Shown: piece after piece, positions 25,067 to 25,524 of the stretch
Position numbering within the stretch: position 1 is the stretch's first letter
How the letters are laid out: each line of letters opens with the position of its first letter
IMG/VR virus record: IMGVR_UViG_2724679368_000003
DNA: 64,000 nucleotides
Source of the DNA: an uncultured virus (IMG/VR IMGVR_UViG_2724679368_000003)
Taxonomy: Duplodnaviria; Heunggongvirae; Uroviricota; Caudoviricetes
Reading direction: 5' to 3' (one strand)
Program-made: the position numbers and the translations under genes
Notes under the pieces: generated by a model
What the model saw: only the letters and a program-made list of their open reading frames with translations
Database searches by the model: none
What the model was told of the DNA's origin: nothing

Positions 25067-25524
25067 TTACTGAAGAGAGAATCCGCCGGTTAGACCTGAG
25101 TAGTGATATTTACTACTTGTGGAGGATTTAGATCCTCTGTTTTTTTGCGCTGCCCTTGTGCTGTCCACGGTGCTGCTACGAAGCTTCCCATGGCATGTTG
25201 TAGTGTATAGGCGTACTGCGTACTGATCGTGTTGGCGACATCACGATCAGATTGAATAGGGTTCACTGCCAAAAACTCTCATTTCCTGATTATGGCGACC
25301 TAACAGCAATTCTGCTGTTAGTTATCAGGAATAAAATTTATGAAAAATAGTAACGCGTTTTGGCAGGCACTTAAGAAGAATGACACTAAAAAGAAGAAGC
25401 GGAAGCAAAAGCAGAAGCTTTGGAATATTGTAAAAGTACTGGTGAGAGCCGGTCTGTGTGTTTACAAACTCCTTAACTTCTTCTTTGGTGATAATGATGC
25501 TTAAGTGTGCCCTACCTTCAGTAA
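25067..25524 (+). ncRNA. Putative retron msr-msd RNA enclosing the small ORF
   Basis: Terminal inverted repeat TTACTGAAG (25067-75)/CTTCAGTAA (25516-24); hairpins at 25099-25117, 25122-25137, 25223-25250 and 25283-25331; exact boundaries uncertain. Confidence 0.6.
25340..25504 (+). CDS. 54-aa basic/hydrophobic small protein, putative retron effector; absent from the ORF track
   Basis: AGGA RBS; MKNSNAFWQALKKNDTKKKKRKQKQKLWNIVKVLVRAGLCVYKLLNFFFGDNDA. Confidence 0.7.
   Translation: MKNSNAFWQALKKNDTKKKKRKQKQKLWNIVKVLVRAGLCVYKLLNFFFGDNDA

Follow-up and report, generated by a model that had tools for sequence, protein, structure and literature searches.

Two Type VI retrons have been described in which the gene of a small protein (SP) is located within the retron RNA itself, namely Retron-Vpa2 of Vibrio parahaemolyticus (Zhang et al., bioRxiv 10.1101/2025.10.22.683967) and Retron-Sen3 of the cl2075 lineage (Garcia-Rodriguez et al., bioRxiv 10.64898/2026.04.27.721009). 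Here we analyse a third such locus, found in the region 25009-26760 of a 64,000-nucleotide stretch of DNA from an uncultured virus (IMG/VR IMGVR_UViG_2724679368_000003). The whole stretch is referred to below as the window. Judged by its gene content the locus is a phage-borne Type VI retron, and its design is one that has already been described in related retrons.

In Vpa2, an approximately 470-nt hybrid RNA carries the msr-msd together with the SP coding sequence, the ribosome-binding site (RBS) as well as the start codon are in stem-loops, and a 63-nt long stem-loop constitutes the core of the multicopy single-stranded DNA (msDNA). The SP is toxic, and the reverse transcriptase (RT), the helix-turn-helix (HTH) protein and the hybrid RNA form a complex. 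The msDNA accumulates only upon triggering or if the HTH protein carries a mutation, the translation of SP needs an active RT, and msDNA supplied in trans is sufficient. The 7-nt direct repeats of the RNA were proposed to be the docking site of the msDNA. An HTH point mutant is toxic, and so is a deletion of the non-coding part, which increases the SP output (10.1101/2025.10.22.683967).

In Sen3 the SP gene also lies within a covarying RNA framework. A long-range repeat connects the end of the non-coding RNA (ncRNA) with sequence past the SP stop codon, the RBS is sequestered, and two alternative conformations were proposed. However, SP and the single-stranded DNA (ssDNA) are reported to be constitutive, the HTH protein acts as an antitoxin via an HTH-SP interaction, and the ssDNA level is unchanged on infection; the main text leaves loop repeats unmentioned (10.64898/2026.04.27.721009). 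The same work gives the SP lengths as 55 aa for Vpa2 and 79 aa for Sen3, the latter with an N-terminal extension of about 25 residues, and describes the Vpa2-type SPs as lacking the amphipathic C-terminal extension that is predicted to contact the HTH protein. In both systems the RNA is highly enriched relative to the downstream genes (10.1101/2025.10.22.683967; 10.64898/2026.04.27.721009).

Our main finding is that the pairings which enclose the translation signals of the SP gene in the window, i.e. the anti-Shine-Dalgarno (anti-SD) helix, its inner hairpin, the helix at codons 7-9, the stop-codon helix and the pairing between TAGGGT and the 3' tail, are conserved in silico, and show compensatory changes, among relatives whose RTs share 40-55% identity with that of the window. 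The features involved are collected in Table 1.

The 471-nt stretch of the predicted hybrid RNA folds at -147.1 kcal/mol, as compared to -121.1 +/- 6.1 kcal/mol for shuffled sequences (z = -4.24; none of 100 shuffles equalled it), and the equivalent interval is 432-512 nt long across 55 relatives. The region 25000-25560 contains six placements of perfect 9-mer inverted repeats versus 0.72 in mononucleotide shuffles, with 0.6% of 1000 shuffles reaching six. The initial annotation had described a small open reading frame (ORF) embedded in the retron RNA and surrounded by five pairings. The embedding was confirmed, and four of the inverted repeats are exact: 25067-75/25516-24 (9 nt, 100%), 25283-90/25324-31 (8 nt), 25300-08/25313-21 (9 nt) and 25266-74/25358-66 (9 nt). 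The fifth pairing, an imperfect one between 25257-67 and 25504-14, is represented in the minimum-energy fold by a 6-bp core (25257-62/25509-14). A duplex fold of 25252-65 with 25502-21 has an energy of -11.6 kcal/mol, including an extra TGAA/TTCA extension.

The SD sequence AGGA (25327-30) is situated 9 nt ahead of the ATG at 25340. It is in the 3' arm of the 25283-90/25324-31 stem, which covaries family-wide, so the RBS is covered by this stem as had been suggested. The partner of 25266-74 does fall in the early codons, as the arm TTTTGGCAG makes up codons 7-9 (F-W-Q) of SP, and the 3' arm of the outer repeat is indeed located past the TAA stop codon (25502-04), just ahead of the RBS of the HTH gene. 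The riboregulator hairpin, which encloses the inner hairpin 25300-21 and carries the second copy of a direct repeat (TGGCGAC, 25293-99) in its internal loop, has a predicted dG of -19.3 kcal/mol in the window. The predicted probability that the SD is unpaired is 0.006 for SP versus 0.87 for the HTH gene.

Table 1. Features of the retron locus, in order of their position in the window
Feature	Position	Strand	Basis or remark
Palindrome TTCGC-N5-GCGAA, candidate HTH operator	25009..25023	.	just upstream of the -35 box
Promoter-like TTGACC-17-TATTCT	25028..25056	+	consensus scan 9/12; RNA start ~25063-25066
Predicted hybrid RNA, ~470 nt (msr-msd, riboregulator, SP coding sequence, 3' tail)	25064..25535	+	putative ends
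Outer repeat, 5' arm	25067..25075	+	exact 9-bp match; in minimum-energy fold
GAGAG, 5' strand of an a1/a2-like pairing	25075..25079	+	pairs with CTCTC 25276-80
msr element CCGCC (family consensus TCGCC)	25083..25087	+	complements both GGCGA loop repeats
Two conserved msr-type hairpins (25098-25118; 25121-25138)	25098..25138	+	minimum-energy helices; align family-wide
Long variable stem-loop, candidate msd template	25146..25207	+	minimum-energy helices; variable alignment region
Hairpin with direct-repeat copy 1 (TGGCGAC, 25233-39) in its loop	25223..25250	+	inverted and direct repeat
Hub strand: TAGGGT to 3' tail, CTGCCAAAA to codons 7-9, CTCTC to 5' end, TCAT to start codon	25257..25282	+	
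Riboregulator hairpin: anti-SD arm 25283-90 with ATCAGGAA (25324-31, has the SD)	25283..25331	+	
SP ORF, 54 aa, presumed toxic effector	25340..25504	+	homologous small ORFs at the same position, 69 unique loci
Codons 7-9 (TTTTGGCAG), 3' strand of the junction helix	25358..25366	+	compensatory changes
Third arm: remaining coding sequence closed by GCACTTAAG/CTTAAGTGT	25367..25508	+	inverted repeat, minimum-energy fold
3' tail: GCCCTA pairs with TAGGGT (25257-62); CTTCAGTAA is the outer repeat 3' arm	25509..25524	+	
HTH protein, Cro/C1 type, 105 aa	25536..25853	+	Pfam HTH_3, PADLOC HTH_VI
Retron reverse transcriptase, 310 aa	25828..26760	+	PADLOC RT_VI 4.1e-104, Pfam RVT_1

Relatives were collected via an RT profile, which gave 48 viral and 80 metagenomic loci. 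Using tblastn, the HTH gene was detected in 113 of 129 loci and a match to SP in 24 (8 near-identical, 16 at 32-43% identity). Other searches by sequence returned few SP homologues, i.e. two near-identical proteins in a word-indexed search and six proteins at E <= 0.001 in a full HMMER scan, so the SP family was recovered by its position upstream of the HTH gene. This positional search yielded 83 loci (69 unique) in which a small ORF terminates immediately upstream of the HTH gene.

A covariance model (R1) was built from the three inner stems of the window. R1 matched 61 of 78 sources, always on the plus strand; 59 of the 65 sources with a small ORF were among these and 2 of the 13 others, and the placement of the match coincided with the start of the small ORF in every matched small-ORF locus checked. 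In the resulting alignment of 61 sequences 94.2% of the cells hold standard pairs, versus 59.4% in shuffled alignments and 35-44% if the partner strand is slid by 1-3 columns. Changes on both sides were seen in all 26 pairs, and the covariation score was 0.848 versus 0.236 (reached by 0 of 500 shuffles). The anti-SD helix is paired in 94.6% of the cells, with all seven pairs changed on both sides, and the inner hairpin in 91.9%. The R1 alignment is fitted to the structure that is being tested, and the count was repeated on structure-blind MAFFT alignments. There 97.1% of the cells of the codon 7-9 helix are paired and all 8 pairs are compensatory (65 sequences); among the 55 full-length sequences the values are 95.5% and 9 of 9. 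The columns of the anti-SD helix and of the inner hairpin are misaligned by MAFFT (58-65% paired there), yet they are above every partner swap.

The peptide encoded by codons 7-9 is variable within the family (FWQ, NWL, DQQ, EQQ), the pairing is retained, and the non-coding partner strand changes in step, which argues that the constraint is on the RNA. The helix 25367-75/25500-08, which contains the SP stop codon, is 86.5% paired, and 5 of its 7 pairs are changed on both sides (swap control 65.6%). Both ends of the coding sequence thus appear to be clamped, since this helix as well as the codon 7-9 helix is conserved. The TAGGGT-to-tail pairing is formed in 74.5% of the cells, and its three central G-C pairs in 87-98% (48-54 of 55 sequences). 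Its flanks covary, with combinations such as CACAGGG/CCCTTGTG, CACAGAG/CTCTGTG and TCAGGGA/TCCCTGA. The stem of the loop-1 hairpin (25223-50) is 79% paired with 11 of 11 pairs changed on both sides. The stop-codon helix, the TAGGGT-to-tail pairing and the loop-1 hairpin are each above all 500 partner swaps. The comparison across homologues supports four of the five pairings of the initial annotation.

The pairing left over is the outer 9-bp repeat, which had been taken for the stem that closes the RNA. The repeat is real in the window sequence; its function is putative. It is invariant within the Yersinia lineage and is not conserved outside it. In 52 other family members the corresponding columns are 52.1% paired, no better than the swap control (53.6%; 413 of 500 swaps reach the observed value). 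Moreover, the leader-tail duplexes of the individual loci (-3.69 kcal/mol) have no energy advantage over those of mismatched loci (-3.87 kcal/mol; Mann-Whitney p = 0.57), and the duplex of the window (-10.5 kcal/mol) is an outlier. In the nearest relatives the matching 3' bases pair instead with TTGAA-type bases beside the TAGGGT strand, and about 0.7 perfect 9-mer placements are expected by chance in the region. On the other hand, the repeat forms in the minimum-energy fold and connects the predicted beginning of the RNA with the bases that immediately precede the HTH RBS. There are about 90 possible placements of this kind, and a chance 9-mer there would be unlikely (~5e-4, our own estimate, not computed). 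A closure of some kind between the 5' and 3' RNA ends is also described in both preprints (10.1101/2025.10.22.683967; 10.64898/2026.04.27.721009). A comparison of the longest complementary run between the 3' tail and the 5' region, with G-U pairs allowed, had no power, as shuffles give about 9 nt. On this evidence we give even odds to the view that the repeat arose by chance or is peculiar to the lineage and does not act as the stem that closes the RNA. It may add a Yersinia-lineage-specific closure of the RNA ends, which is not needed for the model proposed below.

The list of pairings in the initial annotation did not include a family-wide one between GAGAG at the 5' end and CTCTC of the hub strand, nor the two GGCGA loop repeats. 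GAGAG/CTCTC is 86.5% paired in 55 sequences, and four of the five pairs are changed on both sides; the swap control gives 77.1%, and none of the 500 swaps is as high as the real pairing. The variants include GGGAG/CTCCC, GAGCG/CGCTC, GAGAT/ATCTC, TAAGAG/CTCTTA and ATAGCA/TGCTAT. This pairing crosses both the codon 7-9 helix and the TAGGGT-to-tail pairing, and would therefore belong either to a pseudoknot or to an alternative conformer. When the non-coding part of the window is folded alone, the minimum-energy structure contains it. Among the 55 relatives, 18 form it if the non-coding part alone is folded and 4 if the full length is folded; full-length folding gives the codon 7-9 helix in 45. 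Both pairing modes of the hub strand have compensatory changes within the family. The conserved CAT following CTCTC is able to pair with the SP start codon, as TCAT/ATGA in the minimum-energy fold (25279-25282 with 25340-25343). The hub strand therefore offers both an anti-AUG and a partner for the 5' end. In the window, the second msr hairpin and the seven T that follow it (25119-25146) score as an intrinsic terminator-like site within the retron RNA; relatives have fewer T there (TTT, followed by CCCCGCA).

The direct repeats TGGCGAC are at 25233-39, in the loop of hairpin 25223-50, and at 25293-99, in the internal loop of the riboregulator. In most loci the two copies are at about -106 and -46 from the ATG, both positions are conserved family-wide, and an identical 6-mer is common to both loops in 41 of 55 loci. 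The msr element (Table 1) faces the GGCGA repeats at 25234-25238 and 25294-25298. A perfect complement of this element is found in loop 1 of 27 of the 55 loci and in loop 2 of 35, and the element covaries with the loops (CCGTC/GACGG, TCACC/GGTGA, TCGTC/GACGA). Within the 24 loci that have a variant msr 5-mer, the loops of the same locus match it 4 and 6 times, compared to 0.5 and 0.4 times for swapped loops (0 of 1000 swaps reach this). The test of TCGCC/GGCGA was motif-based; a column-based version was dropped, the loops being misaligned by 1-2 columns.

Upstream of the RNA there is a palindrome that looks like an operator for the Cro/C1-type HTH protein of the retron, which would imply transcriptional autoregulation. 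It is exact in 35 of the 55 family loci, and 45 have it with no more than one substitution. Its half-sites hardly vary and its spacer is unconstrained, which is why the pattern fits a protein operator. The palindrome might be the counterpart of a feature of the Sen3-type retrons; however, it is 44 nt upstream, ahead of the -35 box, and its half-sites are invariant and not covarying. The distance from the palindrome to the aligned RNA start is 37-41 nt in most loci and 19-27 nt in six. The window and those relatives that are closest to it have an extra GCGAA half-site between the -35 and -10 boxes. The promoter scan by itself is not significant (7 sites versus 7.3 expected); both hexamers align across the relatives. 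The promoter-like site precedes the whole structured region, and the scan also lists candidates nearer to and inside the operon.

These additional elements can be combined into a tentative picture of an RNA with three states, in which the 26-nt hub strand 25257-25282 alternates between two incompatible modes, an a1/a2-like pairing and pairings that close the mRNA. CTCTC paired with GAGAG would close the msr-msd in a priming-competent, a1/a2-like form, and the other hub bases, placed on codons 7-9, the start codon and the 3' tail, would correspond to the closed mRNA form. The TCGCC element could act in cis as an RNA stand-in for, or a competitor of, the msDNA's activating loop. Reverse transcription that passes through loop 1 would switch the RNA from one state to another, and the promoter palindrome would add a transcriptional feedback via the HTH protein. 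Taken jointly with the proposals on the msr element, the reverse-transcription flip and the HTH feedback, we regard this picture as possible and on the whole rather doubtful. In the main texts of the two preprints the terms operator, palindrome, pseudoknot, autoregulation and kissing do not occur; figures and supplements may show some of these features (10.1101/2025.10.22.683967; 10.64898/2026.04.27.721009).

As to the mechanism, the leader-toxin-regulator part of the locus is probably a translational switch of the Vpa2 type, a reading that we favour with some reserve. In the resting state the SD would be inaccessible, so that the toxic SP would not be made. On infection, reverse-transcribed DNA would accumulate. 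The msDNA copy of the first loop repeat would be the complement of the second repeat in the riboregulator loop, and its docking would open the hairpin; SP would then be translated and growth would stop, i.e. an abortive infection. The HTH protein would restrain reverse transcription and would probably also repress the promoter via the upstream palindrome. We favour a mechanism of this type because the SP has 54 aa, the loop repeats are present and the anti-SD hairpin is predicted to be very stable. The idea that reverse-transcribed DNA opens the RNA and switches on toxin translation had been put forward in the initial annotation. By our analysis it is sound, and it is already published for Vpa2 (10.1101/2025.10.22.683967).

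Several observations weigh against this reading. The SP start codon is weakly paired, with a probability of 0.40 of being unpaired. The anti-SD stem is 58-62% paired on the structure-blind alignments, and the R1 alignment in which it scores higher is structure-fitted. The thermodynamic gap between the ribosome sites of SP and HTH is modest across the family: the median probability of being unpaired in 55 loci is 0.257 for the SD region of SP and 0.394 for that of HTH (Wilcoxon p = 1.8e-4). The putative assignment to a Vpa2-like branch is drawn from the SP length (54 versus 55 and 79 aa) and the loop repeats. The RNA data for the locus consist of two single contigs of low depth, a metatranscriptome contig of 151 nt (25334-25484, depth 2.6) and a 190-nt piece (25489-25678), which are uninformative on the ends, the level or the expression of the transcript; two raw-read RNA runs with the same species label gave no reads on the window. 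The mechanism is proposed by analogy with Vpa2. Finally, the SP gene of Sen3 is also in a structured RNA yet is reported to be constitutive (10.64898/2026.04.27.721009), and therefore a sequestered RBS in a predicted fold is no proof of translational control.

The last point leads to the alternative that best withstands the evidence on the mechanism. As in Sen3, SP could always be translated and be held inactive by the binding of the HTH protein, with the RNA serving as a scaffold of an RT-HTH-RNA complex and for ssDNA production and not as a gate. In Sen3 the tagged SP is detected without infection, the HTH protein neutralises SP without RT or ncRNA, and an HTH frameshift could not be maintained; the SP coding region is nonetheless embedded in a covarying RNA framework (10.64898/2026.04.27.721009). 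The HTH point mutant of Vpa2 is toxic as well (10.1101/2025.10.22.683967), and HTH and SP are always adjacent in the family, the small ORF being directly upstream of the HTH gene that was matched in 113 of 129 loci. In view of the Sen3 results and the Vpa2 mutant, the wording of the initial annotation, which set the switch in place of the usual neutralisation at the protein level, was too strong. However, the SP of the window, with 54 aa, is without the N-terminal extension of about 25 residues that characterises the Sen3 group, and SPs of the Vpa2 type are said to be without the amphipathic C-terminal extension for HTH contact (10.64898/2026.04.27.721009). The candidate msDNA docking repeats of Vpa2 are present here, and the anti-SD stem covaries with the SD strand, which would be hard to explain if the access of ribosomes were irrelevant. 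We consider a control of the Sen3 type unlikely for this locus, though it deserves to be kept in mind. That the stems mainly serve the biology of the retron RNA (RT recognition, priming geometry, stability or processing), with the burial of the RBS as a by-product and SP made at a low level, would agree with the covarying GAGAG/CTCTC pairing, which closes the msr-msd like a1/a2, crosses the stems in question and forms in the fold of the non-coding part, and with the reported enrichment of the Vpa2 and Sen3 RNAs over their downstream genes, but we find it improbable, because the SD strand and the stop codon are both in helices with compensatory changes, which points to selection on the translation signals themselves, and a deletion of the non-coding part of Vpa2 is reported to be toxic and to raise the SP output (10.1101/2025.10.22.683967).

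The presumed toxic effector, SP, has a lysine-rich middle and an amphipathic, hydrophobic C-terminal helix, with a net charge of +11. The structure prediction gives a single long helix at residues 4-49 with a mean predicted local distance difference test (pLDDT) score of 75.6, the values being 81-94 in residues 21-50. No match to SP was found in Pfam, PADLOC or PHROG. The reading frame is closed upstream of the ATG, and a Sen3-type N-terminal extension is absent. The relatives found by position share a variable N-terminus of the FWQAL, NWLA, DQQ or EQQAQ types, followed by the same lysine-rich middle, and their amphipathic, hydrophobic C-terminal helix in most cases has an FFEGD-like tail. Some related loci (L013-L016, L021-L026, L084, L085, L096, L099-L102 and L119) lacked an intact small ORF in our scan of the sequence upstream of HTH. 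Two of these, L013 and L021, were tested with the riboregulator model and gave a weak match (E = 0.22). The loci without an intact small ORF may contain SP genes that are decayed or differently started.

The order of the operon is ncRNA, SP, HTH, RT. The RT matches the PADLOC model RT_VI over 278 of 279 profile positions, with the model RT_III-A as runner-up (1.5e-40), and has an intact YVDD motif at residues 196-199. The HTH protein matches PADLOC HTH_VI (6e-36) and Pfam HTH_3 (1.9e-12). Three traits of Type VI are present, i.e. an RT of the RT_VI clade, a Cro/C1 HTH gene upstream of and overlapping the RT gene, and a small accessory ORF upstream of HTH. The RT and HTH genes overlap by 26 nt (RT start 25828, HTH end 25853).

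The retron is inserted in a P2-like Yersinia prophage, between the tail completion gene S (Phage_tail_S 1.9e-33) and the baseplate spike gene V, both of the P2 type. The GC content of the retron block is 32-41% compared to 50-58% in the flanking phage backbone, and the block is therefore an acquired insert. This block of 1.8 kb is 99.8% identical to vB_YenM_56.17, an inducible temperate phage of Yersinia enterocolitica, in which the three genes are annotated as a hypothetical protein, a transcriptional regulator and a retron-type RT. A term search of the paper on this phage (PMC9224151), as far as its text was covered, finds no mention of a retron. The closest non-Yersinia RTs are only 50-55% identical. 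A search of complete Escherichia coli genomes for the locus gave no match, and a search of genome contigs with the single RT protein returned only an identical locus of Yersinia aldovae. We note that the prophage has a second island of low GC (32-33%), 22199-23119 on the minus strand, with an ORF of 306 aa. Its product has no match in Pfam, PADLOC or PHROG and includes a stretch of hydrophobic residues and consecutive ST repeats. This ORF may represent a further gene with an accessory or defence role.

The locus is a new phage-borne example and not a new principle, as the central idea is already in print. The design with a toxin gene inside a retron RNA, known from retrons of Vibrio and Salmonella, also travels on an inducible P2-like Yersinia phage, and the stems that are predicted to block translation are under selection across a wide family (RTs 40-55% identical to the window RT). 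The two Type VI retrons studied by experiment conflict with each other, one being controlled at the level of translation and the other at the level of the protein. A further member that is phylogenetically separate and has a very stable predicted anti-SD hairpin is thus a useful test case. Modest leads on how the switch might work are offered by the extra pairings that are conserved and by the palindrome at the promoter.

In a canonical retron, such as Retron-Eco1 (Ec86), the msr-msd is a non-coding RNA whose 5' end forms an inverted repeat (a1/a2) with the sequence past the template. A long template stem-loop comes after the msr hairpins, and the msDNA has the role of an antitoxin. The locus of the window has the same kind of 5'-end inverted repeat, msr hairpins and template stem-loop, but here the RNA runs into a coding sequence, and the GAGAG/CTCTC pairing crosses two other conserved helices. 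In toehold-like switches and RNA thermometers the SD is in a local hairpin, which is opened by a nucleic acid acting in trans or by melting. The SD hairpin of the window is alike, whereas the proposed trigger is an ssDNA made by the RT of the element itself. A search of Rfam gave only sub-threshold matches at the level of chance; the one to the HtrA thermometer (20.6 bits versus a gathering score of 52) is a resemblance by shape only and implies no membership.

With Sen3 the locus shares the enterobacterial Type VI setting, an SP gene in a conserved RNA framework, a long-range repeat past the SP stop codon, a sequestered RBS and two proposed alternative conformations. It differs in its SP, which has 54 aa versus 79 with an N-terminal extension, and in that Sen3 is reported to be constitutive and controlled by HTH-SP interaction. 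A search for Vpa2 itself among the collected loci, using the published mutant residues K15, I39, F43 and F45, gave no locus that fits all four; RTs named after Vibrio parahaemolyticus are 48-49% identical to the window RT, and one of them may be that of Vpa2 (WP_069548583.1). As compared to Vpa2, the differences are the host, which is a P2-like Yersinia phage, the weakly paired start codon, and the fact that our locus is known from its sequence alone. In common with Vpa2 it has the operon order, an RNA of about 470 nt that contains the SP coding sequence, an RBS in a stem-loop, an SP of about 55 aa with a hydrophobic C-terminal helix, two conserved loop repeats, of which one is in the msd hairpin and the other in the riboregulator, and a 3' end that folds back onto the first arm.

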